Shown here: positions 28,706 to 49,951 of the stretch, in pieces | Layout of the letters: every line of letters begins with the position of its first letter | Numbering within the stretch: the first letter of the stretch is position 1 | Assembly (NCBI GenBank): GCA_014729345.1 | Contig: WJKB01000056.1 | Location: 71 to 64,070 of the forward strand | DNA from: Candidatus Woesearchaeota archaeon | GTDB lineage: Archaea; Nanobdellota; Nanobdellia; Woesearchaeales; WJKB01 | DNA length: 64,000 nucleotides | Reading direction: 5' to 3' | Translations under genes and position numbers: made by a program | Notes under the pieces: model-generated | Seen by the model: the letters and a program-made list of their open reading frames with translations, nothing else | What the model was told of the DNA's origin: nothing | Databases searched by the model: none

Positions 28706-29203
28706 TTATCCATAAGTAAGCTCTGCCAGCCGCAGGTCATCGATACTGTCAGCAAGCTCTCCAGAGCAGTAATCTGTGCTTGCCAGCACTGTCACCATGT
28801 CTTCTGTTAACCTGTCTTCAGGATAGATGCATGTCATCTCAGCTCCCTGGAATAAGGTCCTCACCTCTTCAGGCTCATCTGGATCCAGCTCTTCTATCCT
28901 CTTGCTGATGGTGCAGTCATCCTGCACCGCAACAACTGCAGTAGTACCTTCGATATTCTCTTCAAGGTATGCAGGCTCGCAGTCAGCATATGCCTGCACT
29001 ATGCATGCCTCATCCCTGCATCTTTTGCCCTGGCCTGCTCCAGGTAGAAGATACAATGCCCCGAATGTCACCAGCAAGCCGACGATCACGACACCAGCCA
29101 CTATACCGAGCCATCTCATGCGTCTTTTTCTTGAAATGATCTTCCTGCTTCCAGGGACGATCGATCTGCCGGTGTTCAAGGATGTAGGTTTCATGTTTGC
29201 CAT
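28706..29203 (-). CDS. small membrane-anchored protein (165 aa), last gene of the giant-protein cluster
   Basis: Basic N-terminus then a single TM helix (WLGIVAGVVIVGLLVTFGALYLL), and a C-terminal domain with 4 Cys. Confidence 0.45.
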   Translation of the reverse strand: MANMKPTSLNTGRSIVPGSRKIISRKRRMRWLGIVAGVVIVGLLVTFGALYLLPGAGQGKRCRDEACIVQAYADCEPAYLEENIEGTTAVVAVQDDCTISKRIEELDPDEPEEVRTLFQGAEMTCIYPEDRLTEDMVTVLASTDYCSGELADSIDDLRLAELTYG

Positions 29204-33115: not shown

Positions 33116-36100
33116 TCAGGTACATGCCTCTACCCTGCCTGTAGATTCTGGCATCAGAGCTTCATATTCTGGAATGACCTGCTGCTGTTGTTCAAACAGC
33201 TTGTAATTGTTGTATATTATCTGGGATGCGAAGTCTCTGAGTACAAATGATGCATGTACAAAGTCAACCTCTTCAAAGGAATCATAATAAGCCCTTGTCT
33301 GAGAGATGTCCATCATTGCAGGTTGAACTCCTGGTATCCTCACCATCCGCTCACTTGCCCTTAGTTCCTGTATCACTTTGTCAACATATTCCTGATTTCC
33401 GTCGAAAAGGGCAAGCAGCATTGACTGGAATTCAGGGCTTTCAAGGCCTTTTTCAGTAAGCAGATGCTGGTTGTTATTGTAAGCCATGTAGACCTTGTTC
33501 ATATGGTTGTACAGCCGAGCCACCACATTCTGCGTCATCTCTCTGTCTCTTTCTGCACCCTGGGACTGCACCCTGTATGGCTCTCCAGGATCTGTCTCCC
33601 TCATAAGGGGGTCAACATCCTTGCCGATCCTATATTCAGGCCTGTAAGCGAGTCCTGCCTGGATATGCGACCCGATAAGGGCGCCTGCGTTTGAAAACGC
33701 TGTAATTGTCTGGTAAGCTGGCCCGAACTGTTCTCTTATACTAGAGATATCCTCCAGGCTGGCTGCATAATCAACAACATCAGATCTTTCGCTGGAATCT
33801 ACAAGGAATATCCTGAATGTTACTCCATTTCCAGCTTGATCCAGTCTTGTGAATGCGAAACTTCTTGCAAGTGCTGGATGACCTTTTGCGACAAGGTCTT
33901 CCTCATTCTGCTGTGCTTCTATATCATACCTGTAGTCTGTCATCCCTATACTTGTTGTTGATATCTCCTGATATTCATGCTCAAATCCTATGCCTGTCTT
34001 AAAGGTGTACTCAGGAGCAGATACCCGTGTTTGGCCGTCATAGTAATAACCCTGGAAATTCGGGGTCCCTATGCCTTTCAAACCTATCCTGTAACCGTAC
34101 TGCACCTTATGGGTGGATGGGTCATACTCGATAGCAGACTCGGTAAGATGCTCAAAGAAGATCTCATCCACCTCTCCGGTCTGCTTGTTGACTACAATGG
34201 TAGTGGGCTGTTTGACATGGAACTCTCTTCCTCCCTGCGCAAAGACAGGTATATCATTACCTGTGTATTCAAGTCCGAACAGGACCTCTATCTCATCTTT
34301 GCTAAGATCATTGAAGTTCCTGTCCCAGACATCTCCGGCTATAGGCACAGGCATGCCCACCTCATCAGGATTCCGGTCTTCTCCCTCAGACTTGATCTCT
34401 GCTATTCCATCCTGGTATTCTTCTTCTGTTATCTGTCCTTGTTGTCTCTGCCGGACCAGAGATCTGACTTGCTCAAGCTTTTCCCTGCTTCCCAGCTTTT
34501 CAGAAGCCGTATACAGTCCTGCGACAACAGCAAACTCCTTGTATTGATGGTCTGCGCGAGCTACCCTACTGATCGGAAGTGCTTCAGCCATCTGTTCCCT
34601 AAATTCATCATTTCTCTCAGCTTCTGTCTGTCCAGGGATATTGCCCTGCCTCATATCTTCGACTATTGCCATAGCAGCATCGTATCTTTCCTCAGTCCCT
34701 GCTATCTTCCACAGATGTACCCTGAACTGATCTTCGGTGAGCCTTCCGGCTTCTGCCTGCCTGAACCTTGTGACTGCCGCCAGACCAGGATTTCTTTTGT
34801 TATAGATATCTCTTTTTGAGATTTCTGATTGCTCCATGATTCTTTCTCTTTGCTGTTCATCCAATGCCTGGGCATCCAGGATGTTGTTCAGGTTTTCCCT
34901 GATCCTGGTTTCCATAGACACCTCTGGAACAACAGGTTCTGCCGCAGGCTCTTCCTCCACAGCAGGCTCCTCTGCCTCAACCATTTCCTCTACTTCTGAA
35001 AGCTGTGCAATCAATCCCCTTTCAGTTTCAGCCTGGATCTCCAGTGCATATGCCGCTCTCTGGGCCTGCCTGACAGTCTCTGCTCCATCTGCAGGAGGGG
35101 CCAGCCTGCTGTCTATGTCTGTTACAGCAGTCACAGGTACATCCACCATGTCCTGCAGACCGTTCTTGACTGCCCTTACAAAGGAATCCTGCCTCACATC
35201 GCTTTGATAGCTGTTGATGATGTATACATCGTCCCCTTGCACAAACACCTGAAGATCTGCAACACCTGTAATCTCTGCTGCTCTTCCGGCGATCGCTGCA
35301 GCAGCATCAGCCTCGATCCCAGGCGCGTTCAGGACAGTAACTGAAGGGGAGGATATGGATTCCAGCTGCTGAGACCTGCTCTGGATATTCTGCATGATAT
35401 CCATCGCTGCTTTTGCTGCACTTGAGCCAAGACTAAGCTCGGTCTCCACTGCAAGCTGTTCTCCCTGCTCCTGCCTGATCTCTTCAGCCAAATCCTGTAT
35501 AGCGCTCTCATACTCCTGTAGTGCCTGCTCGTATGCAGCCAGCCTCCTTTCATAAGCTATGCTCCCTTCCTGAGGCATGGTGGGCCTTGTGATACCCCTT
35601 TGCTGTGCCTGCTGCTCTGCAAGCCTCTGGATCTCAGCGGCAACTCCATTTTCAACATCCTGCTGCATTAAAAGGTATATCTCATTAAATGTATCCTGGA
35701 ATTCCCTGCCTGCAAACCTTGTTTCTTCAAGCGCAGAGCGGGTTGTTGCAGCATATTGCGGAAGAGCCTCATCTATGATCCTGTTCTTCTCATGGGTCAG
35801 GCCTCTCTCAACAAACCTTTGGGCTGGATTCAGCCCTACCATCCCCATTATTTCAGCATTATCCACCAGGTCTGCAGCTTCAGGGATCCCCTGCAGACGC
35901 TCATAGAGCAGTGCTGCCCTATGGTTCTTTCCCAGCCCAACCAGGCTGTTGAAGTAGCTCTCTGCTTCCTGAGCTGACATGCCTGCGATCACCTCTGCCT
36001 CCGTGCTAAGAGCAATGATCTCTCCAAAAGGGCTTTCCACAGCCTGGACTGCTGATGCTTTCAGGCCGATGATATCTGTCCTTACCTGCTGCTCCATACC

Positions 36101-39100
36101 CTCAGGCACCTGCTCCTGCACAGCCAGGTATATCTCTTCAGCTGTATTCTCTCTGACCATATCGACTGTAAGCGCGTCCCTTATCCCAGGCATGTCCTGG
36201 AACCTGAGCCCGATCTCCCCTCTGACCTGTTTTTCCAGCGCAAGCTCTTCGACTATGATGCCTTCTCCCAGAAGCTCCCGCACATCTATCCCGATATTTT
36301 CCTGCCTGTACAGGAGGGCTGCAAACTGGTCTGCTACGTCTGAGTCCGCCCTCAGGAGCTGCAGGTACTGTCTTGCTGCTGCCGTTTTCATATCCCTGTC
36401 CATCCCAGGGTCCATAATCGTGTCAAGCAGGGTGCTGAACCTTTCCTCAAGTATAATATCAATCCTTTCAAGAGAAAGTTCCTTGAGCGCAGAATCAGGC
36501 TGCTGGTCTGTCAGTCTCTTCCGCTGCACGAGGTTGTTGGTGATCACAGGCCCGTATTGCAGTTCTATTATCTCTCTTTGCGCATCCAGGGCCTGACCAA
36601 ATCCGGACTCATGGGCGCTGATATATGCTCTTGCCGCCTCATCATTGACCTCTGAAGCCCTGCGCACATCATCATAGTACTGTTCACCAAGCAGTCTCTT
36701 CAAGAATTCTTCACTCCTTTCATTGTTCCTGTTCTGTGCCAGCCTCAGTATTGCGTTCTCCACACTGGACTCGTCTGTATAGTAATACCTCTCCCCTCCA
36801 CTGATAGCTGTGATAGTGTCTACTGCGCTCATCACCTGTATAAGATCCTCTTTTCCTTCCAGTAGCGCAGGCAGCTCTCCAGGAGTCCTTGGATATCCCC
36901 TGTACTCCTGCCCTGGCTCAACACCCATGTGTACATGGTGCGATGCCGCAAGCGCAGCCACAGTGGCCTGGTCCCTCACTTCAGCAGATATGTCTGTCCT
37001 GGAAGCTATCTGTGCATAAATGGCATCTATCCTAGCCTGCACATCCTCATGAACTCCTGTATCAAGCCTGCCCTGTGCATCATACATCTGGACAGTGTTG
37101 CCCTGCTCATCAACATAAAGCGCATCGATCTCTGCTATCAGATCAGCAGGCATATCAGGATTATCCCTGGCCATGAGGTAAAGCAGCGCCCTTTCTGTAT
37201 TTGTGGGATGGACTGTCATGTAATCCTGGAAGAAGTTTTCAGTCATTCCGACTCCTGTGATTCCGCTCTGCTCTATCTGCTCTTCTGTAAGCCCCCTTGC
37301 CCTTAGTTCATCCACAGCTGCAGCCTTTGCATCGCTGCTGAAAATTGTCTCAAGGTTCTGCGCAGGCCATTCGAGCTTGCCAAGGTCATGCACAGCCATG
37401 GCTCTCCTCAGCAGATCCATGTCATCATCTGATAATCCGAGCTGTCCTGCAACCGCAGCTGCAGCCTCAAGATTCCTCATGCTCATAAGAGTATGGACCA
37501 TGGTCGGGGAGGGGTTATGGGTGGCAAGGGCCTCAAGCGCAGCGATCTGGTTCTGGGTTAGGCTGTCTTCAGGCAGCATGTCTCTAAGTTCTCCTGTAAG
37601 CTGCACTCCCCATGCGATCCTCTGGGACTCATATTCTTCATCATATGTTATTCCGTCTACAGTGCTTGGAGCTCCGAAAGCCTCCCTCTCAAGCCTTTCG
37701 ATAGGGATTTCCACCTCACCGATTATCTGCACTTGAAGCGGCCTTGATTCCTGTGCAAGCGCACGTATCTCCTGCATCTGCTGGTCAGCGGCAAGATTGA
37801 CCTGGAAGACCCCCATGCCCGCAGACTCAAACAGCGCCTCTGCATTAATTATCCATGCATCTGTCACTGTCCATACGCCCTCCTGATCCTGCTCAAGATA
37901 TCTTACCTCCCCTGTGTTCACGTTTGAATATCCTGCAAACAGGCTCTCAAGACTTTCCTGCTCTGAAAGCAGCTCCTCCCTGTAAGCTTCTTCTTCAACA
38001 GTCAGGCCCTCAGCTGCTTCCTGCTTATCAAGCATTCCGATCTCATCACCCGCCTCGCTTAGACGGTTTTCTATATTTGTCTCAAGAGCCCTCATCCTTG
38101 CACTCGGCCCTCTCAGTCCGAGCGCTGCCATGGCAAACTCATTTGCAAGCTCTTCTCTTGCATCTTCCATGGTCTCGTCAGCTGTCATCTGAGCAGCATC
38201 CACAGCCATGTCTGTGAGGTCCTGCGTCCTAAGGAGCAGCTGCTCGTGCCTTTCATGCATGAATATGAATGACCTTACCATGATGTCTGGCTGCCCTTGC
38301 AGCTCAGGGAAGGCATCCCTGACAGCGTCGACTGTCTGCGGAGAAGGATCCACAAAGATATCTGACTCTGTCGAAAGTCCTGCAAGTATGTAGGTGCCTG
38401 TAGGTGTCTGGATCTCGAGAGGTGAGGCAGGCGCAGTTATCTCAAAGTCTATCAGGCCCATCTCAGCAAGATTGGAAAGAGGGGTCGCAAGCATGTCTGC
38501 TGTAGGTCCGCCCTGCGAGTAATAGATGTTCTTGAGCCTGTCTGAGTACGCCATCACCCTGTTGACTGAAGGAACTGCTGCAATCTGTCTTGCCATAAGG
38601 AATTTGGCAGCTTCTCCGTACTGTTCTGATTCGATTGCGCTCACAAACGCCCCTATGACCTCGTTCGGATTGCTCCTGGCCAACTCCAGCGCTGTCGATT
38701 CAATGTTCCTTAGAGCGTTGATGTCACCCCCATATGCCTCATAGCCTGCAGCAAGCGCAGCTGCAGCATCATAAGCGTCCTGGCTGCTTTGGGATGCTGT
38801 CTCGAGCAGCTGGGCTGCAGAAGCTCTTGAGACGTCGTCATTCCTGCTCTGCAGCGACCTCACCATCTGTTCGGGAGTGGCAGTATCCCTTGCAGCCTGC
38901 AGCAGCTGCTGGTCCATGAGGTTCTGCACTGCCTGCAGATATATGCTTTCCATGGCAATTGTCTCATCTGTCCTTCCCTGCTGTTCTATCTCCATAAGCC
39001 TCATGAATTCAGCCCTTATCTCTCCTGAACTGATAGCTTCAGCATAAGCTGCAGCAGTTACATCAGGATCCACTCCGTACTCCTGTCCTGCGGTGTAGAC

Positions 39101-42100
39101 CACTTTGTCGATATTCATGGCCTGCAGTCTTTCAGACGCTATCTGTTCTTCTGTCTTCTGCTTCATCTGCTGTCCGTACAGCTGGGCTTTTGCGTCTTTA
39201 GCATAATTTTCCTGGTGCCTCTGCTCAATTGCTTCGAAATCAGTCACACCTTCTCTTGCAGCCAGGTGCCTTGCAGTAGCTTCCACCTCAGTCCTGACTG
39301 TCTGCGCTATGGATTCCAGCCTTATCTGTTCACTGACCGATGTCTTTACTTTCTCCTCGAACATGTCCTGCCTTACCCGCTCATCCACTATCCGGGCAGT
39401 CTCTGCCTGATCATATCCGTTTGCCTGTGCAGCCTGCCTTATCTGCTCAACCTTGTCATAAAGCGTCTGTTCCACCCTCTGCTTGTATCTCTCTTCAGCC
39501 TGCTCCATGTAAGAGCCCTCTGCATCTGTAAGCCCCAGATTATGCAGGGCTTCCACAGCCTCGATCTGCTGTGCAGCGACAGTATTGCCTTCCTCAGCAG
39601 TCTGGGCTATGTCTGTAGCTATCTGCTCAGAGGACCTGAAGGACAGCTCGTCAGCCAGGGCCTGATCCTCTGCTGTGAGCTCTTCGCCTGCTGAAACCTT
39701 TTCGTCGATATCTGCCTGTCTTGCATCGATAGATTCTCTGACAGCGTCTTCTATGGTCTTTACCTGCTGCATATTGCCTTCAGAGTCTACCATGGTCTCG
39801 ACAGCTACACCTTCAGCAGCTGCGACCACAGTGTTTCCTTCTTGTCTGTACACTACTTTTTGGGCTGTGGCCTCGACCATCTCAACTCCTGCTATCTCGG
39901 ATATGAAACTTGCAAAGTCCTGCACATCTCTTCTGTTGTGCAGGGTCAATCTCTTGTAGTTGGTGTTGCCTGCCTCGTCCACAAGTGTCTGCTCGCGCTG
40001 GAAGTTGGGTGCATCCACCCCTGCTGCTGTCAAAACCTGGCCGTCGATCTCCATGCTTTGGCCTTCACTGATGCTTCTTTGGTTGGTGTTGATGAACACG
40101 ATATTTGAGGGGCCTCCTGTGTTCACTGTCTCAGCCCTGACTATGCTGTTGTCTGAACTTACCGAAGTCCTGTATCCCCTGCTTTGCAGTGACGCCTGTA
40201 TATCATCTGTCCTTATACCTTTCACCATGATCTCCTGAGAGATGACGTTGTCAGCGCTGTCAAATGTTATCACTCCGCCTCTTGACACTTCTGCTGCAGG
40301 ATTGGCGGTCCTTATCGCGTTTTCAGCTGCCTGTGTCACAGTGGTGTCCATCTTGGCTTTTGTCACATCAGAAGCATCGACTCTTGTGCTTATCCTAGAT
40401 ACGCTTGAAGCAGAGGTGTCGCCTCTTGCAAGGCCTGCTGCTATCTGTGCGCCGGTCTTTCTTATGGTGACATCCTGCTGGCTGACGTCTACTCCCTTCT
40501 CATGCAATACCACTGCTCCTGTATTGTCCCCTATCTCACTCTGGAAAGTGATGATACCGTCAGTGTCTGTGTTGAGTGTCCGAGCATTGAAGCCGGCTGT
40601 CTGCGACAGTCCTGTCTGCAGTGTCTGCATTGCCTCAGCATCCTGCATAACACCGTCAGCCACCTCAAGCTCCATGATCTTCTGTCCTCCTTCAAGTATG
40701 GCGGTGTGGGCTATGGTCTCTACAGCTATCTCGCCGACGTCAAATTTTGCATCAACATTGAGCCCGATGTTTGATAGTCCTGCTTCGCTTATGTCTGGAG
40801 TCAGGAGTACTGTATCTCCAAGGCTGCTCTGGTAAGAGAAAGCAGCGATCTCTCCTGCAGCATCCCTTATCTCCTGCCTGTTTGTCAGCTCAAGTGCTCT
40901 TTCGATGTTTTCAAGGTTGGAGGGATCCTGTCTGGCTGCTTCAAACTGGTTTTGGGAGAGCTGGCCTGTAGTTGTCACTCCTGAGGCTGTGACAAAAGTC
41001 CTGACATTGCTTCTTCCCAGGGAATTAAGGTAAGAGTTATACATCTCGCCGTGTCCTGCAATCTGCTCAAATGTGTCTGGCAGGGCTGAGAACTGTCTGG
41101 CAAGCGCCTCTCCTCCTAGCTTCTCTCCGAACTTGCCCAGGGCAGAGCCCAGCTTGTCTGCATAGAAATACTCTTCAAGGGCGATCTCGCCGACCCAATG
41201 CTCAACATTATTCCCGACAAATTTCACGACAGAATTCATTACCTTGCCTGACGGTCTGGTGCCGCCCAAAAGGCTTTTGGTGAAAGAGGAAGCATAGTTA
41301 CCCACCTTGTTGGATACAGAATACATGCCTTTTGCAGTTTTCTGTATCCCTGAGCCTACCTTTCCCACCCCTCTCACCACTGTCCCCAGGGCTTTATAGG
41401 CTCTGCCTGCATCGTCTGCATATGAGGTGGCTTTGGCTGCCGCAGAATACGCTGTTTTGATCTTTCCCATGACAGCTCCGCTCAAATGTGATATGGCCTT
41501 TGACTGGAGTTTCATCATTGCAAAAGACTGGCCGGTTGTCATCTTGTCCCCAAACCCATCCTCATACCTGTCCAGATCTTCCATCTCAAGCTTGATAGGT
41601 ACAGCGCCGTCCTCTGTCTGGAAAGTGTAGGAAGTCTCAAGCTCTATCTCATCCGAGTCCAAATCGATCCCTGAATACTCAGCTATGTCTCTGGCATGCG
41701 TCCTGGTATTCTGGACAGCGTTCTCATAAAGTTTGATCGTCGATTCAGCCCCTAGGCCAAGCCTTTCAAGTCCGTTCTCATGATAAACTCCTTCAGCATC
41801 TGTACCTCCGTATGCTATGTTCAGAGCTTTTTCTATAGCATTCTCTCCATCAGTGGTTCTGCCTTTGAGGATCTCTTCTGTAGTCACTATATTCTCCATA
41901 TCGCCGTTATATGTTGCGATCGAGAGTTCTGCCGCTTGCCTGATGCCTTCAGCTCCCTGCAAAGCATCATCATATTCTGCAAGCGAGTCCTCGATATGGT
42001 TTCCTGTGCCAAGATTGATCCCAAGAATGTCGCCCCATTCATCCCAAACTTCCCAGGCAGGTATAGCTTTTGTCACTCCCAGGCTGGTCACATCCTCCCA

Positions 42101-45100
42101 TCCATAGTCCACAAAACTTTTTATCTTGTCAAGCCCTTCATCATGGAATATCTCCTTGAGGACTGCTCCCATCACTATTTTTTTTGACTGCACATAGTTT
42201 ACGTATGCTTGGCTTCCCTCAACTGTACTGGGAGTGCTGTATACCCGCAGTGTCTCTCTTGCCTGTTCAGAAAATTCCTGGTCAGTATCCTGCGCTTCAT
42301 ACTCTGTCTCCTGGTGCTCGACATCCTTGTTCATCCATTCCTGGGCGATCTGCCGGCCTTCACTGGTCCAGTACCCTCCTTTAAGAAAATAGTCCAGGAG
42401 CATCCTGTTCTTCTCAGAAGATGTCTTGTCAGCCTTTAACTGGAATGCGTTTCTTTCATCCTTGATAGCAAGCGTCTCATCTATCATGGCCTCGACTCTT
42501 CCGCTATCCTCGAGATAATTATCATATGTATCACCCCAAAGCTCAGTGTCTGACCTTTGGATGCCAAATTTCTCAGTTAGCGCGCTGATGGTCTTGAGAT
42601 GACCGTTCATGTCCACTTTCAGGTCAATCATGTCCTTCTCAACTGCTGCAAGGTCGTATTCTTCTTCCACTATAGGATCTCCTGTAATAGTTGACCTTGC
42701 TGCGTTCCAGGCTCCGGTAACTGCATCCTGCACATTCTCTCCAAATCCTGTGGCTGCGCCTGACCATGCATCAACATATGATGAGAAAGCATACCAGGGA
42801 GCAGAAGGGTCCCTTGCCTGGATCTTCCTGTCAAGATAGTTCTGCGCCTGGACATCGCCTATCCTTGCCTTAAGGTCAGCAGCCAGGCCAGAGATACCCT
42901 GGATGGTCTGCGTGCTCAGGTCTCCCTGCTGAGCATCTATGATCTCTCTTGAGGCAAGCTCTTTTGAGTAGGCATCTGCCATTATCTTAAGGTCATTGAC
43001 CTGCTCCTTCAGCGCCTCATTGGCCCTGCCTGAGATCTCAACCACTTCAGCAGCGTCCTCTAGAAGGCCCATCACCCGCTTCCCTCGAGCAAGGAGTTCT
43101 TGATCATCTATGCTGCTGAAAGTCTGGATATACTTTTCCTCTTTCACCTGGTCCTCAAAGCCCTGCAGGGTATTTTTAAGAGACTGGATATAAGCTACAT
43201 CAAGACCCTCTTCCCTTGCCTGTCTTATCTGGATCTCAAGGTCTGACATGACCTGCTCCCTGTCAGCTTCTCCCAAAGCAGCAGCCCTTGCATCAATACC
43301 AGCCATCAGATTCGTAAGCGTACTGATATCCTGCCTTGCAGCTTGCCTGGCTGCATTGTCCCTGACTTCAAGACTGGCCTTGTCACCCACGTAACTTACA
43401 TACTCCACTGTCTCAAAGTATTCATTTTCCTCAAGCTTGTCACTATAGGCTCTTATCTTGAATTCGAGCATTGTTTTTGCCCTTTGCTGGGCCTCAAGAG
43501 GCAGCTGCCTGATAGATTCTTCCAGCTGCTCCATCTCCTCATGCGTAAGGTCCTCCTCCTTTCTTGCAAGCTGGGATATCCTCTGCAGGGTTTGGGGCAC
43601 CTGTTCGATCTGGTCTTCAAGCTCGCTTTTTTCTTTGTCAACAAGAGTCTTTATGCTCTCATCCTCTGTTTTGACCCTGTCCAGCACATTGATTGCATCC
43701 TCCAAGCGTCCCAGGTTTGTATAAGCGGTCGTCAGGGCGTTCTGGACAGCAAAATTGTCCTCCTTGCCTTGAGCATATTCCTCAAGCGATTCAGTGTTTC
43801 CGGTCCTTAGCAGCAGGTTTGCATAATATGACTGCACACCATCGATATCACTGGAATCCTCATCTTTCGCAAGCTGCTCAAGCTTACCGTAGTCTTCAGC
43901 CTCAAGATAGGCTCTTGCCAGATTGGTAGCCAGCTTCTCGTACTCCTCGCTTGAAGAGTCAGCTTCCCGCAGTTCTGTCTCAAACCTCTCAATCATCTCA
44001 GAATAGGTTCCTTCACCCCTTGCTTGCTGGAAATCTGCTTCTGTCTCAACATTTGCGATCAGAGCCTGCGCATAATCTCTTTGCTGAACAGTCGTCGCCA
44101 GCTCTTTAGCCTTTGAAAAAAACCCTTCAGCTTTCTCGTAATCTGTATCCTCCCTGCTGAGCTCTGCAAGGCCCACCATGATATTCTGCTGTGCGTCCAG
44201 GAAACCGACCATCTCTTCAGAAACCTCTCCATATACTCCCTGCCTGGCTGCCTCAAGTGTGCTGGAAAGGATTCTTGAGGCCTCCTCATAATCTTCTGCC
44301 TGCTGCTGGATGTTCGCAAGCTCTGAATTGGCCTGTGCCCTTATATCACCTGGAGCTGCCTCTTCATCTGCTAATGCGGCAAGCTGCTCCTTTCTACTTT
44401 CAACATCCTCTTCCTGCTTGATGGCGCTGAGCTTAGCGCTGTAAAACTCAAGATTGATCCTGTCAGCCTCTTCTGACCTGCCCTCCTCGTTAAGTTGATC
44501 TATGGCAGCCTGGTAGGCATCAAACATTTCCTGTTTCTGCTCATCATCAAGGGAATCCTGGGCCTGCAATATCCTTGCCAGGTTCACTTTAGAGTCAGCG
44601 CTGCCGACAGCATCCACATAATCTTTTGCTGTCTGCAGGGCTTCTGTTTCTGCTCCCTGCTGCATATGCGCGCTTGTAAGTATCTTCCAGGCATCCTCCC
44701 TCTTTGCATCCAGTCCTAACACATACTCAGCAGCCCTTTCTGCTCCTGCTGCATCCTCCATCTGCAGCCTTGCTGAGGCTTTCTGGAGCGACAGCTGTGT
44801 GGTCTTTTCAAAATAATCATTCAGGGAATCAAACCCTGCCTGCTCCAGGTCATAGCCAGCTCCTCTGACCTTTTCTGCAAGCGCCCTTTCAGCAGCTTCT
44901 GAATACACTGTGGCCAGCTCAGCATTTCCGAGCTGGGAATATATGCTGCTCACAGCTGCATAGACATCTGGATTGGTGGTGTCTATGTCAAGATAGCTCT
45001 GGTATTTCTCCAGGGCTTCAAGGATATCACCCTGACTCCGCAACTCCTCCGCATCCTTAAGCAGTTGTGCATTTTCAAAGATCTCCACCAGCTGCTCCTT

Positions 45101-48019
45101 GAGTCCGCTGCTTACCTGGCCTGCAAGGCCGTACCTATATTGACTCAGGAGAATGTCCAAAAGATCCTCATCAAGCCTCTGGCCCTCTGCAGCCTGTATC
45201 AGAAGGTTTCCGAGCAGGTCGATATTGTCCTTACTGACACCCATATCCTTTATCTGCTGTACAGCTTGGTCGTAATCTCCCTGAGCTGCATAGAACTGCG
45301 CCTTTGCCCCGGCTATCTGTCCCTTTTCAAGTTGGTCTCCATATTCCTGCTCCATCTGGTCAAGTTTCTGTATAGCCTGGTCATACTCCCCTTCCGAGGC
45401 ATAGCTGTTAGCGATCTGAAAGTCAAGATATATGCTGAAAGCGGGCATTTCCTCTTTTAGGGCTTCATACTGCTCTCTTGCACCTTCATAGTTACCCTGA
45501 AGCTCGAGTTCAGCTGCTTTGAACATGCTTTCGATAAGCTGTTGCTTTACACCTGCATCAGAGAGGTAGTTCCTGTAATCTTCAAGCGTCCTTATCTCCC
45601 CAAGCTCAAGCTCTTTCCCTGTCATCTTTTCAAGGACTTCCTCAAAGCCTTCCAGCCTTTCGCTCACCTTTGCAAAGACCGCAGCATCCTGCGCTATATC
45701 AAGCATCTTTTCTCCGCCAAGCCAGCCTTCCTTGACATTTCCAAAGGTTCCTTCTTTTGCGAAAACCGCTGCCATGTATCCGAGAGAGCCTTCATTCAGC
45801 TGGAAATAGTTCAGCTTGTTGTCCCTTGATACAGGGGTGAGCCTGATCTCTCCTGCTGCCAGCCCTACCCCTTTTCGAAGCGTAGAGCCTTCAGCAGACA
45901 GGAAGATGATATCTTCCTGCTGGGTGAACCTGAAATTGACGTCAAGGCCGTCTTCTGTCTTCATGCTTAACAGGGCAAGCTCTCTCTGAGCCTCGTCTGG
46001 TCCAGGACCTTCTGCAGTGCTGTAGACTATGAACTCATCAGTAGCCATCGCTGTTCCTGTTGTGTCCTGTATATAGTTGATGTAATCATAGATACCTTCT
46101 GCATGCCTTCCCTTGATCACTGCCTCTTCATTGGAATACGTGAACTGTCCTTTTCCTATCATGTATCCTATGTCAAATTCCTGATCTTCAAACTTCCTTT
46201 CTGAGATTGAACTCCATGCCAGGTTTTCTGAAGCATCATCAAGCGATAGATCGTCTGTATCCCCAAAAGCGTCTGTCACTCTGGCCTGTGCATCTCCTAT
46301 AAGGTCATCCACACTCTGGTCCAGGAACTCCATGGCTTTTTGGATGCTAATATCTTTCTCAATCACTTCCTCATCTTCCAGAAGCTGGATAGTTATGGTC
46401 TCACCTACCCTGGCATTCTTGTCTCCCTCTGCATCTATAAGCTTCTGCTGCAGGCCCTTCAGCTGGGTCAGGTAAGCGTTAAGGTCATGCGCCTCTGCTT
46501 TCAGTGTCTCCTGCACAAAAAGCACCATGCCTCCGCTTCCTTCTGTTCCGAGGAACTTCTCTGTTGACAGCACTGTACCGTCAGGCTGATACCTTGTGAT
46601 CTCAGCATTTCCTTCCTCACTTAGCCAGATCATGTCTGTCTGGACATCGCCTGTGATAGGGCTCCTCTCGAATGTTATGCCCTTGAATGAATCCGCCTTG
46701 ATACTGTTTCCGGTTCCCATCTCTGTGTATTCAAGGTGCGCTTGGTCTCCAAGTATCCTGCTTATGCTTCCGTCATCATCGAACTCAAACTGGATGCTGC
46801 CTTGTGCCTGGCCTCCTGTTATCTTTATCCCGAGAGTGTTTTCCCAGCCTGGCCTGGACCTGATCGAGGCATAGTTCTCGACCTTGAAACCTACCTGGTT
46901 GCCCTGCTCATCCCTGACAAAAGAGACTGTTGTGGTGTCGTCATGCGCAGTCACCTCTATGCCGTTGTTGAAGAACACAGCCCCTGATGATGTCAAGGCT
47001 ATGATATTCCCCTGCTCATCCCTGGCAAACTCTATCTGGCCTTGCGCCAGCTGCAGACTCTCGCCCCCAGGTCCGTTGATGTTGAAGTTTGCCTGGTCGC
47101 CCACCAGCTCGATGGTGATCGTCTCTATCTCACCGTTGATTATAAGGTTCTCCAGGTCTTCTTCCCTGAGCACCACAAAGCCGTTCTCAGCGTCAGGAAA
47201 CTCTTCAGAAGGGCCTACTGCCCCTATAAAGATGATGTCCTCCACCCCTTCGCCTTTGAGAGACAGGCTCCCGCCCTCCGGGTTGGTAAGTTCTCCTGTA
47301 TTCGTGTCAAGACTGACTCCAGGAGCAGCTGTTATGGTAAGTCCTTGGTTGTATGAAACTTTAGGTTTCTGGGTGTCCATCCACCCTTTCAGCCCATCAT
47401 TCAGCGCAGTCGGGCTCAGTCTGCTGAGGTCAGGTATATTATCAAGATTGGCTGCGACCTGATCGCCGGTAAGCCCCTGCCACTGCTCATCTGTCAGCTG
47501 CTGCGACATTGCTGTCCCTGCGTCAGTCTCTGAACCCAGGATATATCCGACCTGCTCACTGCTCAGCCTGCCCATGGTCTTCCCGTCCATGCCTGAGATC
47601 GCGGATCCCAGCTTGTCTCCTTGAAGTTCAGAAAAGTCTATGTCCTGGAGCTGTCCCTGGTTGAGGTCGTTGAACCTGGAGCTCAGGGATGCAAGCTCTC
47701 CTTCAGACATCCCACCTATGTTATTGTTGAGCTGCGCTATCCCATCTTCTGTGACGGTGATCTGATCCCAGTTATTTGCCACGTTGCTGCCTGTCCACTC
47801 AAAATCACCGCTGTAATCTGGGTTGAAGTTTGACGAGTAGAAATCCTGCTGGCTTATGCCTCCTTCCGTGTCTGTCCAGGTTGGGTATTCCACGACCTCC
47901 TGAGCCGCAGCTTGCGGGCTTATGCCTGTTGTCATGAAGAGGAATATCACAAGGACAGCGCATACCCTGCGCAGTACATGCCATCTTTTGCTTTTTCCCT
48001 TTTCAGCAACGCTTCTCAT
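33116..48019 (-). CDS. giant secreted/surface protein (4967 aa) with N-terminal signal peptide, TPR-like region and internal HD-GYP-like domain
   Basis: Uninterrupted 14.9-kb ORF with coding-like composition throughout. All plus-strand ORFs across it are short antisense artefacts. N-terminal hydrophobic signal (CAVLVIFLFMTTGISPQAAAQ). A 4-bp ATGA overlap with the upstream gene. Confidence 0.85.
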   Translation of the reverse strand: MRSVAEKGKSKRWHVLRRVCAVLVIFLFMTTGISPQAAAQEVVEYPTWTDTEGGISQQDFYSSNFNPDYSGDFEWTGSNVANNWDQITVTEDGIAQLNNNIGGMSEGELASLSSRFNDLNQGQLQDIDFSELQGDKLGSAISGMDGKTMGRLSSEQVGYILGSETDAGTAMSQQLTDEQWQGLTGDQVAANLDNIPDLSRLSPTALNDGLKGWMDTQKPKVSYNQGLTITAAPGVSLDTNTGELTNPEGGSLSLKGEGVEDIIFIGAVGPSEEFPDAENGFVVLREEDLENLIINGEIETITIELVGDQANFNINGPGGESLQLAQGQIEFARDEQGNIIALTSSGAVFFNNGIEVTAHDDTTTVSFVRDEQGNQVGFKVENYASIRSRPGWENTLGIKITGGQAQGSIQFEFDDDGSISRILGDQAHLEYTEMGTGNSIKADSFKGITFERSPITGDVQTDMIWLSEEGNAEITRYQPDGTVLSTEKFLGTEGSGGMVLFVQETLKAEAHDLNAYLTQLKGLQQKLIDAEGDKNARVGETITIQLLEDEEVIEKDISIQKAMEFLDQSVDDLIGDAQARVTDAFGDTDDLSLDDASENLAWSSISERKFEDQEFDIGYMIGKGQFTYSNEEAVIKGRHAEGIYDYINYIQDTTGTAMATDEFIVYSTAEGPGPDEAQRELALLSMKTEDGLDVNFRFTQQEDIIFLSAEGSTLRKGVGLAAGEIRLTPVSRDNKLNYFQLNEGSLGYMAAVFAKEGTFGNVKEGWLGGEKMLDIAQDAAVFAKVSERLEGFEEVLEKMTGKELELGEIRTLEDYRNYLSDAGVKQQLIESMFKAAELELQGNYEGAREQYEALKEEMPAFSIYLDFQIANSYASEGEYDQAIQKLDQMEQEYGDQLEKGQIAGAKAQFYAAQGDYDQAVQQIKDMGVSKDNIDLLGNLLIQAAEGQRLDEDLLDILLSQYRYGLAGQVSSGLKEQLVEIFENAQLLKDAEELRSQGDILEALEKYQSYLDIDTTNPDVYAAVSSIYSQLGNAELATVYSEAAERALAEKVRGAGYDLEQAGFDSLNDYFEKTTQLSLQKASARLQMEDAAGAERAAEYVLGLDAKREDAWKILTSAHMQQGAETEALQTAKDYVDAVGSADSKVNLARILQAQDSLDDEQKQEMFDAYQAAIDQLNEEGRSEEADRINLEFYSAKLSAIKQEEDVESRKEQLAALADEEAAPGDIRAQANSELANIQQQAEDYEEASRILSSTLEAARQGVYGEVSEEMVGFLDAQQNIMVGLAELSREDTDYEKAEGFFSKAKELATTVQQRDYAQALIANVETEADFQQARGEGTYSEMIERFETELREADSSSEEYEKLATNLARAYLEAEDYGKLEQLAKDEDSSDIDGVQSYYANLLLRTGNTESLEEYAQGKEDNFAVQNALTTAYTNLGRLEDAINVLDRVKTEDESIKTLVDKEKSELEDQIEQVPQTLQRISQLARKEEDLTHEEMEQLEESIRQLPLEAQQRAKTMLEFKIRAYSDKLEENEYFETVEYVSYVGDKASLEVRDNAARQAARQDISTLTNLMAGIDARAAALGEADREQVMSDLEIQIRQAREEGLDVAYIQSLKNTLQGFEDQVKEEKYIQTFSSIDDQELLARGKRVMGLLEDAAEVVEISGRANEALKEQVNDLKIMADAYSKELASREIIDAQQGDLSTQTIQGISGLAADLKARIGDVQAQNYLDRKIQARDPSAPWYAFSSYVDAWSGAATGFGENVQDAVTGAWNAARSTITGDPIVEEEYDLAAVEKDMIDLKVDMNGHLKTISALTEKFGIQRSDTELWGDTYDNYLEDSGRVEAMIDETLAIKDERNAFQLKADKTSSEKNRMLLDYFLKGGYWTSEGRQIAQEWMNKDVEHQETEYEAQDTDQEFSEQARETLRVYSTPSTVEGSQAYVNYVQSKKIVMGAVLKEIFHDEGLDKIKSFVDYGWEDVTSLGVTKAIPAWEVWDEWGDILGINLGTGNHIEDSLAEYDDALQGAEGIRQAAELSIATYNGDMENIVTTEEILKGRTTDGENAIEKALNIAYGGTDAEGVYHENGLERLGLGAESTIKLYENAVQNTRTHARDIAEYSGIDLDSDEIELETSYTFQTEDGAVPIKLEMEDLDRYEDGFGDKMTTGQSFAMMKLQSKAISHLSGAVMGKIKTAYSAAAKATSYADDAGRAYKALGTVVRGVGKVGSGIQKTAKGMYSVSNKVGNYASSFTKSLLGGTRPSGKVMNSVVKFVGNNVEHWVGEIALEEYFYADKLGSALGKFGEKLGGEALARQFSALPDTFEQIAGHGEMYNSYLNSLGRSNVRTFVTASGVTTTGQLSQNQFEAARQDPSNLENIERALELTNRQEIRDAAGEIAAFSYQSSLGDTVLLTPDISEAGLSNIGLNVDAKFDVGEIAVETIAHTAILEGGQKIMELEVADGVMQDAEAMQTLQTGLSQTAGFNARTLNTDTDGIITFQSEIGDNTGAVVLHEKGVDVSQQDVTIRKTGAQIAAGLARGDTSASSVSRISTRVDASDVTKAKMDTTVTQAAENAIRTANPAAEVSRGGVITFDSADNVISQEIMVKGIRTDDIQASLQSRGYRTSVSSDNSIVRAETVNTGGPSNIVFINTNQRSISEGQSMEIDGQVLTAAGVDAPNFQREQTLVDEAGNTNYKRLTLHNRRDVQDFASFISEIAGVEMVEATAQKVVYRQEGNTVVAAAEGVAVETMVDSEGNMQQVKTIEDAVRESIDARQADIDEKVSAGEELTAEDQALADELSFRSSEQIATDIAQTAEEGNTVAAQQIEAVEALHNLGLTDAEGSYMEQAEERYKQRVEQTLYDKVEQIRQAAQANGYDQAETARIVDERVRQDMFEEKVKTSVSEQIRLESIAQTVRTEVEATARHLAAREGVTDFEAIEQRHQENYAKDAKAQLYGQQMKQKTEEQIASERLQAMNIDKVVYTAGQEYGVDPDVTAAAYAEAISSGEIRAEFMRLMEIEQQGRTDETIAMESIYLQAVQNLMDQQLLQAARDTATPEQMVRSLQSRNDDVSRASAAQLLETASQSSQDAYDAAAALAAGYEAYGGDINALRNIESTALELARSNPNEVIGAFVSAIESEQYGEAAKFLMARQIAAVPSVNRVMAYSDRLKNIYYSQGGPTADMLATPLSNLAEMGLIDFEITAPASPLEIQTPTGTYILAGLSTESDIFVDPSPQTVDAVRDAFPELQGQPDIMVRSFIFMHERHEQLLLRTQDLTDMAVDAAQMTADETMEDAREELANEFAMAALGLRGPSARMRALETNIENRLSEAGDEIGMLDKQEAAEGLTVEEEAYREELLSEQESLESLFAGYSNVNTGEVRYLEQDQEGVWTVTDAWIINAEALFESAGMGVFQVNLAADQQMQEIRALAQESRPLQVQIIGEVEIPIERLEREAFGAPSTVDGITYDEEYESQRIAWGVQLTGELRDMLPEDSLTQNQIAALEALATHNPSPTMVHTLMSMRNLEAAAAVAGQLGLSDDDMDLLRRAMAVHDLGKLEWPAQNLETIFSSDAKAAAVDELRARGLTEEQIEQSGITGVGMTENFFQDYMTVHPTNTERALLYLMARDNPDMPADLIAEIDALYVDEQGNTVQMYDAQGRLDTGVHEDVQARIDAIYAQIASRTDISAEVRDQATVAALAASHHVHMGVEPGQEYRGYPRTPGELPALLEGKEDLIQVMSAVDTITAISGGERYYYTDESSVENAILRLAQNRNNERSEEFLKRLLGEQYYDDVRRASEVNDEAARAYISAHESGFGQALDAQREIIELQYGPVITNNLVQRKRLTDQQPDSALKELSLERIDIILEERFSTLLDTIMDPGMDRDMKTAAARQYLQLLRADSDVADQFAALLYRQENIGIDVRELLGEGIIVEELALEKQVRGEIGLRFQDMPGIRDALTVDMVRENTAEEIYLAVQEQVPEGMEQQVRTDIIGLKASAVQAVESPFGEIIALSTEAEVIAGMSAQEAESYFNSLVGLGKNHRAALLYERLQGIPEAADLVDNAEIMGMVGLNPAQRFVERGLTHEKNRIIDEALPQYAATTRSALEETRFAGREFQDTFNEIYLLMQQDVENGVAAEIQRLAEQQAQQRGITRPTMPQEGSIAYERRLAAYEQALQEYESAIQDLAEEIRQEQGEQLAVETELSLGSSAAKAAMDIMQNIQSRSQQLESISSPSVTVLNAPGIEADAAAAIAGRAAEITGVADLQVFVQGDDVYIINSYQSDVRQDSFVRAVKNGLQDMVDVPVTAVTDIDSRLAPPADGAETVRQAQRAAYALEIQAETERGLIAQLSEVEEMVEAEEPAVEEEPAAEPVVPEVSMETRIRENLNNILDAQALDEQQRERIMEQSEISKRDIYNKRNPGLAAVTRFRQAEAGRLTEDQFRVHLWKIAGTEERYDAAMAIVEDMRQGNIPGQTEAERNDEFREQMAEALPISRVARADHQYKEFAVVAGLYTASEKLGSREKLEQVRSLVRQRQQGQITEEEYQDGIAEIKSEGEDRNPDEVGMPVPIAGDVWDRNFNDLSKDEIEVLFGLEYTGNDIPVFAQGGREFHVKQPTTIVVNKQTGEVDEIFFEHLTESAIEYDPSTHKVQYGYRIGLKGIGTPNFQGYYYDGQTRVSAPEYTFKTGIGFEHEYQEISTTSIGMTDYRYDIEAQQNEEDLVAKGHPALARSFAFTRLDQAGNGVTFRIFLVDSSERSDVVDYAASLEDISSIREQFGPAYQTITAFSNAGALIGSHIQAGLAYRPEYRIGKDVDPLMRETDPGEPYRVQSQGAERDREMTQNVVARLYNHMNKVYMAYNNNQHLLTEKGLESPEFQSMLLALFDGNQEYVDKVIQELRASERMVRIPGVQPAMMDISQTRAYYDSFEEVDFVHASFVLRDFASQIIYNNYKLFEQQQQVIPEYEALMPESTGRVEACT

Positions 48020-49059
48020 TCAAGCACCAGCCATTCAAAGTTTGCCTCATCAGTGTACCCTGAACCGTCTGTAACCTCAACTGTCACGTTGAAGCTGCCG
48101 GTGATCCTGGGCACGAAGTCCACGCTTCCGTCCTTTTCCACATCGAACATGATGTGGTCTGACCTGAAGGTGAGCTCGTCTCCGTCAGGGTCTGTGGCCT
48201 GTATCTGATACACAAATCTCTCATTGTCCACCCCTACCAGCCTTTCAGGCATGGTGATCACAGGGTACTTGTTCACAGGGACCGTGGTTCCGAACATAAA
48301 AAGGTAAGGCTCTCCTGGCCTCATGGCAGAGCGATTGTCCTGAAAAGCGTATATTATAGTGTCCTCGCTTACAGGCATCACTATGATGTCAAGGTCATAC
48401 TCGAGCAGTGGGGTGAACTGCACCCAGCCCGGATCCTCAACCACAAGATCATTCACCTCGTTTGCTGTGTTGAGTATGTAGCTGAGCCTGTGTGGGATGA
48501 TCACCCTGAACCTTTCAAGCCTTCCCTCGCTTTCCTCAATCGCTGCATCTACAGGGTACTCCATCTCAAACACCAGCTCATTGACAGCTATGGTCACAGT
48601 GGTGTTGGGTTCGCCCGCTTCCACAGACCATCCCTGCTGCTCAAAAGAGCTGAAGTTTGTGCATTCCTCAAGCATCTGGTCCACATACAGGGCAAGCTGG
48701 CTCTCTATCTCTGGCTGCGTGGGCCTGAGATCCCCCAGCTCGTCATCATACCACAGGCTTACTGCTGAGAATTCTGTGACAACTGAAGTGTTTGGAGGAT
48801 ATGCATATCCTCCCTGAACCCCGTTAAGGTAAGCTCCGTCGATCGCTGTCTCCCTCAGGCAGCCGGTGATATAGTTATGCAGGGGCCTGAGCTCTGTGGG
48901 CACCTCTATCAGCTCCCTTTCCACTTCTGGCCTGTAGATTCCGAAAAGATACCATATTGTTGCCGCGAGTATCAGGATGACCAGGCCTATTATGACAAAC
49001 AGCGTCACCTGTCCCCTGCTTCCTTTCTTACGCATTTGCCAGCCTCCAGAAGCTTTCAA
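48016..49059 (-). CDS. prepilin-like (class III signal peptide-like) membrane protein, 347 aa
   Basis: N-terminus is KKGSRGQVTLFVIIGLVILILAATIW: a basic region, RG, then a long hydrophobic helix as in type IV pilins. Translationally coupled to the giant gene. Confidence 0.45.
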   Translation of the reverse strand: MKASGGWQMRKKGSRGQVTLFVIIGLVILILAATIWYLFGIYRPEVERELIEVPTELRPLHNYITGCLRETAIDGAYLNGVQGGYAYPPNTSVVTEFSAVSLWYDDELGDLRPTQPEIESQLALYVDQMLEECTNFSSFEQQGWSVEAGEPNTTVTIAVNELVFEMEYPVDAAIEESEGRLERFRVIIPHRLSYILNTANEVNDLVVEDPGWVQFTPLLEYDLDIIVMPVSEDTIIYAFQDNRSAMRPGEPYLFMFGTTVPVNKYPVITMPERLVGVDNERFVYQIQATDPDGDELTFRSDHIMFDVEKDGSVDFVPRITGSFNVTVEVTDGSGYTDEANFEWLVLE

Positions 49060-49555
49060 ATCCGTGGACTATTATGATCTCTTCCTCAGGCCTCGTAAAC
49101 CCTGATCTTGGAACAACCTCAAATTTGATGCCTGTCATGGATGATACCAGGCCCCTGACCTTCATCTCATCCTCGCACACAAGCGTGAGGCTATTCTGCC
49201 TCTTCTTTGCGAAAAAGGCAGAATAGACCGCAGCCTGTGATGCCAGTTTCCTGGCTATGTCTTCAAGTTTCTGCAGAACAGCCTTGTTCTGCAAGCCAAA
49301 ACCCTCTTTTTCCTCAGCAGAGATGTAAGATAAGAGCAGTATGGTCTTGTCGCTTTGTAGGTTGAGCGAGCATACTATGCTGGGGCCTATTATCTTCTTG
49401 TTCAGTATGTTTTCAGAGAGAAGCTTCCTGACCTCTTTGTTTGTGTAAGCATAGCTCTTTTTCAGCTCTTTGGATATCTGGTTGATGGTCAGCTCCCTGC
49501 TTATATCCCTGAAAAAAAGCCTTATTATCGAAAGCTCTGAGTTCATTCTGGCCAC
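49028..49555 (-). CDS. winged-helix (HTH) transcription regulator-like protein
   Basis: N-terminal 70 aa (SRELTINQISKELKKSYAYTNKEVRKLLSENIL) has HTH/wH character. First gene of the cluster, next to the repeat-rich intergenic region. Confidence 0.45.
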   Translation of the reverse strand: MARMNSELSIIRLFFRDISRELTINQISKELKKSYAYTNKEVRKLLSENILNKKIIGPSIVCSLNLQSDKTILLLSYISAEEKEGFGLQNKAVLQKLEDIARKLASQAAVYSAFFAKKRQNSLTLVCEDEMKVRGLVSSMTGIKFEVVPRSGFTRPEEEIIIVHGFESFWRLANA

Positions 49556-49565
49556 AGTGATAGTT

Positions 49566-49892: not shown

Positions 49893-49951
49893 GTCATCTC
49901 GCCTAAGCATCATCTCCTCGAGGACCATTAAAGAGTAGTATACTCAAAAAA

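Follow-up and report, generated by a model that had tools for sequence, protein, structure and literature searches.

A giant, putatively exported protein of a Woesearchaeota archaeon with HD-like and kinase-fold-like modules

DPANN archaea depend on hosts, yet hardly anything is known about the molecules with which they attach to or manipulate them; as candidates, only the SPEARE-type giants of nanohaloarchaea have been discussed. The stretch of DNA analyzed here (hereafter the window; 64,000 nucleotides, positions 71 to 64,070 of contig WJKB01000056.1) comes from a Candidatus Woesearchaeota metagenome-assembled genome (MAG) and encodes a single protein of 4967 residues, which raises the question of what such a giant does for a DPANN archaeon. 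Because it takes up ~15 kb of a genome that is expected to be very small, the giant is probably under strong selection. Here, we describe a genuine, native gene whose product we read, with a probability of roughly 40%, as a modular protein of a new family that is exported and serves in host interaction or as an effector. Giant exported DPANN proteins are already known; what may be new is a secreted kinase-fold domain family.

An intact, native gene with few detectable relatives

33116..48019, minus strand: giant gene, 4967 codons plus stop (GenBank MBD3310105.1, locus tag GF351_02710)

The gene starts with ATG, contains no internal stop, and spans 14,904 nt or 23.3% of the window, in agreement with a preliminary description of this DNA that had noted a single uninterrupted open reading frame filling almost one quarter of the window; the assignment to the minus strand is new. 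The product has a mass of 548.6 kDa and a pI of 4.36, as computed from its sequence. Given the base composition of this region, 4967 codons would remain free of stops with a probability of ~1e-116, and the remaining two frames on the same strand contain 266 and 363 stops. Relative synonymous codon usage correlated with that of 17 housekeeping genes of the window (r = 0.93 for the whole gene; 0.77-0.96 for individual 3-kb tiles). Neither blastp nor sensitive tile-against-tile phmmer comparisons detected internal repeats in the protein, and no tandem repeats able to mislead an assembler were found in the gene.

These observations bear on the concern, raised in the preliminary description, that the contig might be chimeric. 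An assembly artifact or a decaying gene, be it a chimeric join or a pseudogene that seems intact, would be compatible with the short-read origin of the MAG and with the lack of a full-length homolog that could validate the architecture. However, the frame is free of stops over 14.9 kb, its codon usage is uniform along the gene and native in each 3-kb tile, and repeats are absent. A random misjoin would, moreover, keep the frame in one third of cases and would not yield a protein that starts with a signal peptide and ends with a conserved domain. Since its codon usage matches that of the housekeeping genes, a chimeric join or foreign origin of the giant is unlikely, and we consider an artifact or decaying gene to be very improbable. 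Collectively, these observations indicate that the giant is a genuine, native, and intact gene of a Woesearchaeota (DPANN) archaeon.

The protein is already deposited in GenBank as a “hypothetical protein” of this Candidatus Woesearchaeota MAG (64,154-bp contig; locus tags with the prefix GF351_), and neither its locus tag nor its accession was mentioned in the literature searched. It is the sole member of its 90%-identity cluster. The neighboring proteins that were checked are singletons as well, except for Elp3, whose lone cluster partner is a 46-residue fragment, and this suggests that the lineage is poorly sampled. The gene content of the window is archaeal (Spt5-NGN, archaeal DtdA, Elp3, form III RuBisCO, and a FlaI/FlaJ-type pilus locus), and no RNA genes were found in it.

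Aspartate and glutamate account for 17.9% of the residues of the giant, compared to 8.6% for lysine and arginine. The acidity reported in the preliminary description therefore stands; rather than forming long Asp/Glu-rich regions, however, it is a general bias and not a set of low-complexity tracts. Three other products of the window (g1213, g347, and g724) are likewise strongly acidic, whereas the soluble housekeeping proteins are balanced (Asp+Glu and Lys+Arg both 13.8%). Because the cytoplasmic housekeeping proteins are unbiased, the acidity is best regarded as a trait of surface proteins and not as the mark of a salt-in halophile proteome. A halophilic (nanohaloarchaeal) origin was dropped on this ground and because the record is labeled Woesearchaeota. 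Thus, the nanohaloarchaeal SPEARE proteins, with which the giant had been compared at the outset, can serve as an analogy only; neither their taxon nor their halophily carries over to this MAG.

Searches of Pfam, NCBIfam, PADLOC, PHROGs, and PDB sequences revealed no recognizable domain over most of the length of the giant. This is in line with the preliminary description, which had nevertheless overlooked the two enzyme-like modules presented below, a basic amphipathic segment, and an operon with a pilin-like gene. Since PADLOC and PHROGs gave nothing meaningful, defense-system and viral origins were set aside. A word-indexed search of 5.8 billion proteins with three segments spanning the giant, each query reaching the ceiling of 8000 candidates, yielded no match, although it also missed the existing record of the giant itself (MBD3310105.1); negatives of this kind are therefore untrustworthy when queries are long and biased in composition. 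In addition, 1.84 billion representative proteins were searched exhaustively with HMMER; the query, a 1200-residue composite of the four segments that looked most globular (residues 200-520, 2380-2509, 3470-3790, and 4540-4967), returned the giant itself and four other proteins only (P0013, P0014, P0015, and P0016). The ~3770 residues outside the composite had no match in Pfam, NCBIfam, PADLOC, PHROGs, or PDB sequences. Likewise, tblastn of both halves of the giant found no match among plasmids and phages, and peptide-pattern scans of GTDB genomes, JGI metagenomes, and IMG/VR were negative. Scans with an alignment of the C-terminal domain returned nothing from metagenomes or IMG/VR, a peptide-pattern scan with the neighboring g1213 returned nothing from IMG/VR, and no giant gene was found near Elp3 in 10 DPANN and other loci. 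About 75% of the length of the giant would, on these comparisons, be without a detectable homolog, the homolog searching being weak for that part. The singleton cluster and the four weak relatives recovered with the 1200 residues that were searched exhaustively suggest that the giant belongs to a distinct family that appears to have no characterized member, as had been surmised, and that it is not of the SPEARE type.

Two enzyme-like modules

Residues 4547-4967 (33119..34381, minus strand): C-terminal domain, predicted to have a protein-kinase-like fold and assigned to a new family that is very rare (four-sequence alignment and model)
P0013 (RLE45697.1; Woesearchaeota; E 1.1e-24): relative that fills a whole 5.6-kb contig and is open at both ends
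P0014 (bacterial contig; 849 residues; E 6.9e-11): relative with an N-terminal hydrophobic leader, encoded directly upstream of a GspE-GspF-pseudopilin-PilN/O-secretin operon
P0016 (HLC85092.1; Nanoarchaeia; E 8.1e-4): relative whose frame continues upstream across a single TGA, the upstream part matching P0013
Residues ~3490-3760 (36740..37552, minus strand): HD-superfamily metal-dependent phosphohydrolase-like domain (sequence comparison)

Three of the four proteins recovered (P0013, P0014, and P0016) carry the C-terminal domain of the giant, to which they are 26-28% identical, with 32 invariant columns. Because the contig of P0013 is open at its ends and the frame of P0016 continues upstream across a TGA, both are regarded as fragments of large proteins. 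The C-terminal domain is thus conserved in other large DPANN proteins. Invariant positions include GGGR (4596-4598), T4607, K4612, KGxG (4648-4651), R4736, R4745, D4750, N4777, GKD (4799-4801), D4810, and K4857.

No Pfam family or PDB sequence matched the domain. An AlphaFold2 model built from the four-sequence alignment (mean predicted local distance difference test score, pLDDT, 51.6; predicted template modeling score 0.56) shows a beta lobe at the N-terminus and a C lobe made of helices. The best 50 Foldseek matches of this model in the PDB were protein-kinase-like folds only, whereas a control fold search with a poor, all-helical model of the HD region returned no kinases. In the model, T4607-x4-K4612 falls at the end of the strand that follows GGGR, and GKD falls in a loop after a long helix. 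GGGR, K4612, the aspartate of GKD, and D4810 would accordingly fit a glycine loop, the beta3 lysine, the catalytic aspartate, and the metal-binding aspartate, respectively. We infer from the model that the C-terminal domain may have a protein-kinase-like (SelO/Bud32-like) fold.

The bacterial relative P0014 lies directly upstream of a secretion operon, which suggests that it is a substrate or accessory of the adjoining type II secretion/type IV pilus-like system. That operon (L011 1263-13812; ENA ERZ27247709 k141_230720) comprises a complete set of such genes, namely GspE, GspF, GspG-like, GspJ-like, PilN, PilO, and secretin. On the Nanoarchaeia contig DATDXB010000156.1 (L012 ~850-852), a lone in-frame TGA splits the homolog (...SDDDV, stop, FPIPIIGEVYEEGKPL...), and the conserved domain starts right after it; the TGA could be a sequencing error, the mark of a pseudogene, or a site of read-through or recoding.

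The fourth protein recovered (P0015) comes from Armatimonadota and carries three HD_5/HD domains according to Pfam. Residues 3490-3573 of the giant matched it at E 7.3e-5, as computed for the whole library of 1.84 billion proteins, and with 33% identity. Alignment with hhalign to HD_5 of P0015 gave a probability of 92.9% over 64 columns, with H3509 and H3544-D3545 aligned and with ‘AVHDLGKLEWP’ facing ‘GLHDIGKTLWP’ (shared ‘HDLGKxxWP’). On the isolated region, Pfam HD (PF01966) scored 20.7-21.3 bits (cut-off 22), and HD_5 had no Pfam match there. An insertion of ~70-90 residues precedes the HH...GYP block, and H3604, H3694-H3695, GYP (3708-3710), and D3733 follow in order; together with H3509 and H3544-D3545, these are the candidate ligands of the module. 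The HH pair and the GYP are the only ones in the giant, and the ordered signature occurred in none of 20,000 composition-matched shuffles, the pattern having been picked after the sequence was seen.

As judged by sequence comparison, the H...HD half is homologous to HD-GYP-type domains. HD-GYP domains are defined by HHExh(D/N)GxGYP (10.1101/2021.11.05.467447), and membership of the giant was rejected since its motif is non-canonical and the second half is unaligned. The module was therefore filed as related to HD-GYP but not as a member, and it is probably an HD-superfamily domain of uncertain substrate.

The state of these modules bears on whether the giant is purely a structural surface protein (a fiber, stalk, adhesin, or envelope matrix) in which the modules are degenerate, non-catalytic binding or scaffold domains; such a protein would keep the symbiont attached to its host or form a surface layer, and would deliver nothing. 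The degenerate HHE motif would be expected of such a protein, as inactive HD-GYP domains have been documented (10.1101/2021.11.05.467447), and the absence of enzyme substrates outside cells would fit it as well. Yet all candidate metal ligands of the HD-like module (H, HD, H, HH, D) are present, and polar and glycine residues at enzyme-like positions are invariant across four C-terminal sequences that are only 26-28% identical.

The remaining chain and its genomic neighborhood

Residues 1-39 (47903..48019, minus strand): Sec-type signal peptide with a basic n-region, an h-region at residues 15-33, and the site SPQAAA/QE, as read by eye
Residues 40-520 (46460..47902, minus strand): N-terminal region rich in Gly/Ser/Thr and beta formers by composition, without a family match
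Residues ~827-1153 (44561..45541, minus strand): tetratricopeptide repeat (TPR)-like helical repeats, sub-threshold or weak matches
Residues 2137-2317 (41069..41611, minus strand): basic, Gly-rich, amphipathic segment, a composition outlier

The N-terminus is consistent with the signal peptide previously proposed. It is strongly basic (Lys/Arg at 7 of the first 18 residues) and leads into a 19-residue hydrophobic core followed by an AxA-type site. This core (residues 15-33) is the only hydrophobic segment of the giant, no other 19-residue window having a mean Kyte-Doolittle value of at least 1.2. Only two cysteines are encoded, C20 within the signal peptide and C4966, and no Walker A motif occurs anywhere in the protein. 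Residues 40-520 may constitute a binding region; residues 200-520 had no match in the exhaustive search. Within the former, residues ~100-210 (47420-47720, minus strand) contain ~8 short degenerate motifs of the form (L/M)(S/T)xxQ(hydrophobic)xx(L/I), such as LSSEQVGYIL, LTDEQWQGL, and LTGDQVAANL, which were spotted by eye and have no family match.

By composition, residues ~500-2000 form an acidic stretch rich in helix formers. The TPR-like segment that had been placed at about 44650-45520 was recovered at nearly the same position with weak matches: TPR_19 of Pfam scored 24.2 bits against a cut-off of 25, other TPR models were weaker, and designed consensus TPR proteins in the PDB matched at E 0.0057. 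Residues 2137-2317 carry a net charge of +11 per 80 residues, compared to a protein mean of -7.5 (z 4.4), have a hydrophobic moment of 0.417 versus 0.232, and contain numerous small-xxx-small motifs, which makes them a candidate membrane-interacting module. A mixed alpha/beta region follows at residues ~2380-2760, and the rest of the chain is more helical and is interrupted by the two enzyme-like modules. Overall, helix formers are abundant in ~60% of the chain, and the giant, which is non-repetitive, would be mostly alpha-helical and modular.

This helix-rich chain with TPR-like repeats is what a structural surface protein might be expected to have, and its extreme acidic bias is shared with the surface-protein neighbors g1213, g347, and g724. 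For archaeal giants already known, such as halomucin and the ectodomains of SPEARE proteins, a mainly structural or adhesive function is assumed (PMC6642349, PMC10266531). On the other side, the modules usual in adhesins (Ig, cadherin, laminin-G, and beta-propeller) and tandem repeats were not found. Weighed together with the state of the enzyme-like modules, these observations make a purely structural role the main rival, somewhat less probable than the exported, modular reading.

The giant lies in a putative operon on the minus strand, and a type IV pilus-like locus is encoded elsewhere in the window:

49028..49555, minus strand: g175, small basic cytoplasmic protein that overlaps the start of g347; first gene of the putative operon
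48016..49035, minus strand: g347, a protein that is membrane-anchored or resembles a pilin; it has a class III-type signal by motif (KKGSRG/QVTLFVIIGLVILILAA) and, at its C-terminus, a Big_9 domain of the Ig-like type
29383..33024, minus strand: g1213 (MBD3310104.1), separated from the upstream giant by 91 nt; it carries a signal peptide and a coiled-coil region
28706..29203, minus strand: g165 (MBD3310103.1), small protein with an N-terminal transmembrane segment and a Cys-containing ectodomain; possibly the last gene of the cluster
242-7176, plus strand: type IV pilus-like locus with a pilin, a FlaI-like ATPase, and a split platform

The stop codon of g347 overlaps the start codon of the giant (ATGA), and the giant is translationally coupled to this pilin-like gene. 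Downstream, g1213 has a transmembrane segment at residues 877-895 followed by a Cys-rich Golvesin_C-like end (30.9 bits against 31.6). It also contains 4-5 copies of ‘G(R/Y)WRDxxGRF’ (residues ~585-720) that match phrog_24776, a viral family of unknown function, at E 4.5e-5. No ATPase domain was found in g1213 with Pfam or NCBIfam. Within the pilus-like locus, the open reading frame at 296-832 encodes a prepilin with an archaellin/pilin N-terminal domain (UpsA-like; TIGR02537, 31.6 bits), and that at 1223-2026 has a class III-type signal by motif only. These are followed by the FlaI-like ATPase (2241-3980) and a FlaJ/UpsF-like platform split in two genes (4221-6260 and 6265-7176). The products of this locus might assemble the pilin-like g347.

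The location of the giant relative to the membrane can be considered in light of these neighbors. As an intracellular or inward-facing scaffold enzyme, in which the N-terminal segment is a tether or non-functional, the giant would act on the nucleotides or proteins of the archaeon itself. Nucleotide-dependent domains usually work in the cytoplasm, the giant has one hydrophobic segment only, and its signal peptide was read by eye. By the positive-inside rule, however, a basic N-terminus ahead of a hydrophobic core places the rest of the chain outside, and the giant has such a basic N-terminus, the 19-residue core, and the AxA-type site. Flanking genes encode signal or anchor sequences and extracellular-type domains (Big_9 and the Cys-rich Golvesin_C-like end), the acidic bias is common to surface proteins and not to cytoplasmic housekeeping ones, and the bacterial relative P0014 likewise starts with a leader and is encoded next to a type II secretion operon. 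An inward-facing protein is therefore improbable.

Several further features of the window were observed. The divergent intergenic region between g175 and an AMP-binding gene (49556-49993, 438 nt) is AT-rich and contains a 14-nt tandem repeat (GCCAATGACCAGTA, 5.6 copies, 49801-49879) and an 11-nt repeat in three copies (49565-49598). Weak hints point to g175 as a possible regulator, and the repeats may be operator sites for this small basic protein. At 20170-22344 (minus strand), g724 encodes 724 residues. Behind its signal peptide lie beta domains of the CARDB/NPCBM_assoc-like type, tracts that are poly-acidic or rich in Ser/Gly, and a C-terminal transmembrane segment that ends in a basic tail, so that g724 may be an S-layer protein or surface adhesin. 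On the same strand, the gene for a form III RuBisCO large subunit (23042-24307) leads directly into that for a DUF4202/HD-domain protein (22455-23051), and a flavin reductase-like gene (24950-25423) lies near this pair.

A possible host-directed role and comparison with known giants

According to the exported, modular reading that we favor, the chain would run from the signal peptide through a beta-rich region, a helical/TPR-like scaffold of ~1500 residues, the basic amphipathic Gly-rich segment, an alpha/beta region, further helical scaffold, and the HD-like domain to the ~420-residue kinase-like C-terminal domain. It would be made together with the pilin-like Ig-domain protein g347 and a second large surface protein, g1213. 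Once exported, the giant might be retained by these operon partners, either on the cell surface or on a type IV pilus-like fiber, and contact a host cell. The basic amphipathic segment could then engage the host membrane, and both enzyme modules could work within the cytoplasm of the host or where the two cells meet, the net result being a multi-effector host-manipulation protein. Because substrates of the nucleotide type are absent outside cells, enzyme modules would be expected to act inside the host or at the junction, which makes such contact with a host the most parsimonious mechanism. The kinase-like fold, catalytic competence, export, membrane engagement, delivery to a host, the link to a pilus, and a role in host-cell interaction are all predictions.

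Several points weigh against this reading. It draws on MAG sequence alone, and the exit of the giant from its producer, or its entry into a host, would be a hypothetical step. A profile of the C-terminal family found no match among PDB sequences, the mean pLDDT of its model (51.6) is modest, none of the Foldseek matches was individually significant (best E 0.038, TM 0.2-0.3), and the putative catalytic and metal-binding aspartates are nine residues apart, which is shorter than in canonical kinases. The HHE...GYP region of the HD-like module reads SHHVHMGVEPGQEYRGYP; its motif is HHVH-x8-GYP, in which Glu is replaced by Val and the gap between HH and GYP is 12 residues instead of 6. This half was left unaligned by hhalign, and a narrow hidden Markov model of it had no match in the giant; for the HD region, an AlphaFold model from the single sequence (pLDDT 44) was unusable. 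Pfam HD fell just under its gathering score, and both enzyme assignments are below conventional thresholds. Finally, the pilin signal of g347 fits a regular-expression motif only, with no match to TIGR02537 or NCBIfam, the pilus locus is 26 kb from the giant, and the link of the C-terminal family to secretion machinery comprises two cases.

A more specific and unlikely form of the exported reading would make the giant the first archaeal analog of bacterial multi-effector toxins. Presented on or beside a type IV pilus-like fiber via g347, it would insert its basic segment in the host membrane and deliver two enzymes. Of these, an HD-GYP-related phosphodiesterase could degrade cyclic (oligo)nucleotide signals of the host, such as immune second messengers, and a SelO-like enzyme could phosphorylate or AMPylate host proteins. 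The C-terminal domain would then represent a new secreted kinase-fold family of large DPANN proteins and of a bacterial type II secretion substrate. MARTX and other large multi-effector toxins, considered as a functional analogy only, have a cysteine-protease autoprocessing domain and Gly-rich repeat regions on either side of their effector modules; the giant has only two cysteines, no repeats, and no Pfam match to such domains.

If the modules are active, the injection of enzymatic effectors by DPANN archaea becomes directly testable with two small recombinant domains; a secretion-associated kinase-fold family would be new, and HD-GYP-type chemistry would be extended to archaea. If they are inactive, the giant is still an example of how far orphan giant surface proteins diverge. 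In either case, Woesearchaeota appear to have a giant exported protein that is unrelated to SPEARE, is non-repetitive, and combines enzyme-like modules with a pilin-coupled operon.

The modules themselves can be compared with characterized enzymes. HD-GYP phosphodiesterases (PmGH 4MCW, Bd1817, and the V-cGAP cGAMP phosphodiesterases; PF01966/PF13487) resemble the giant in the H...HD half and in having the HH pair, GYP, and distal Asp in the right order. They differ in that the giant has HHVH-x8-GYP, the insertion of ~70-90 residues, and a sub-threshold Pfam score. HD-GYP domains are, furthermore, cytoplasmic bacterial signaling modules that are nearly absent in archaea (10.1101/2021.11.05.467447), whereas the module described here sits in a putatively exported archaeal protein. 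With respect to the protein-kinase-like superfamily, including SelO (AMPylase, 6EAC) and Bud32/PRPK, there is no sequence-level similarity between the giant and any solved kinase, and its C-terminal domain, with four known sequences only, has additional conserved motifs (KGxG, R-x3-VD-x-A, and F-x-N-x-G).

Among whole proteins, those of at least 5000 residues are few in archaea, in agreement with the rarity claimed at the outset, and nearly all of them have Laminin_G_3 (PMC11573180), a domain that the giant lacks. Because it has no internal repeats, the giant also differs from those giant adhesins that consist of Ig or cadherin units in tandem. SPEARE giants combine adhesion domains (one or more laminin-G domains plus Ig-like, fibronectin, or beta-propeller modules) with a C-terminal transmembrane segment and a cytoplasmic P-loop domain. 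The latter was first read as a ‘type III restriction enzyme’ and later as a VirB4/TraG-like ATPase, and a second VirB4-family gene lies downstream (PMC6642349, PMC10266531).

A divergent SPEARE or nanohaloarchaeal giant surface protein, acting as a type IV secretion-like straw, would share with the giant its size, its acidity, and its signal peptide in a DPANN archaeon. SPEARE proteins (Ca. Nanohaloarchaeum antarcticus NAR1_1133; SVXNc_0300, BNXNv_0298; 4-9 thousand residues) are indeed giant and acidic, have an N-terminal Sec signal, occur in DPANN with small genomes, and have been proposed to act on a host (PMC6642349, PMC10266531). However, no adhesion domains of their kind (laminin-G, Ig, fibronectin, or beta-propeller) were detected in the giant with Pfam at E <= 1 or with NCBIfam. 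A hydropathy scan revealed no C-terminal transmembrane segment, and neither a Walker A motif nor a Pfam or NCBIfam match indicated a VirB4/TraG-like or helicase-like P-loop domain. The gene directly downstream is g1213 and not a VirB4-family ATPase, and no sequence similarity between the giant and SPEARE proteins was detected. Four of the five defining features are thus absent, and the fifth, an N-terminal signal peptide, is shared; SPEARE membership was rejected, and descent from that family is hardly credible. The giant differs, in addition, in its HD-like and kinase-fold-like modules and its pilin-like partner.

Closer in plan are the Omnitrophota ‘Archaeovorins’ and the giant virulence-factor-like proteins of Chlorochromatium epibionts, which are very large and non-uniform and join helical repeats (TPR/HEAT) with enzyme domains. 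They belong to small-celled organisms that live on other cells, and they have been proposed or shown to act on the partner (10.1101/2023.11.21.568195; 10.64898/2026.03.19.712371). They differ from the Woesearchaeota giant in being bacterial and in carrying other sets of domains (glycosyl hydrolases, peptidases, NUDIX, and others); there is no detectable homology, and the giant is much smaller than the Archaeovorins. By analogy, these scaffold-plus-enzyme giants of host-dependent bacteria may be its nearest functional counterparts.

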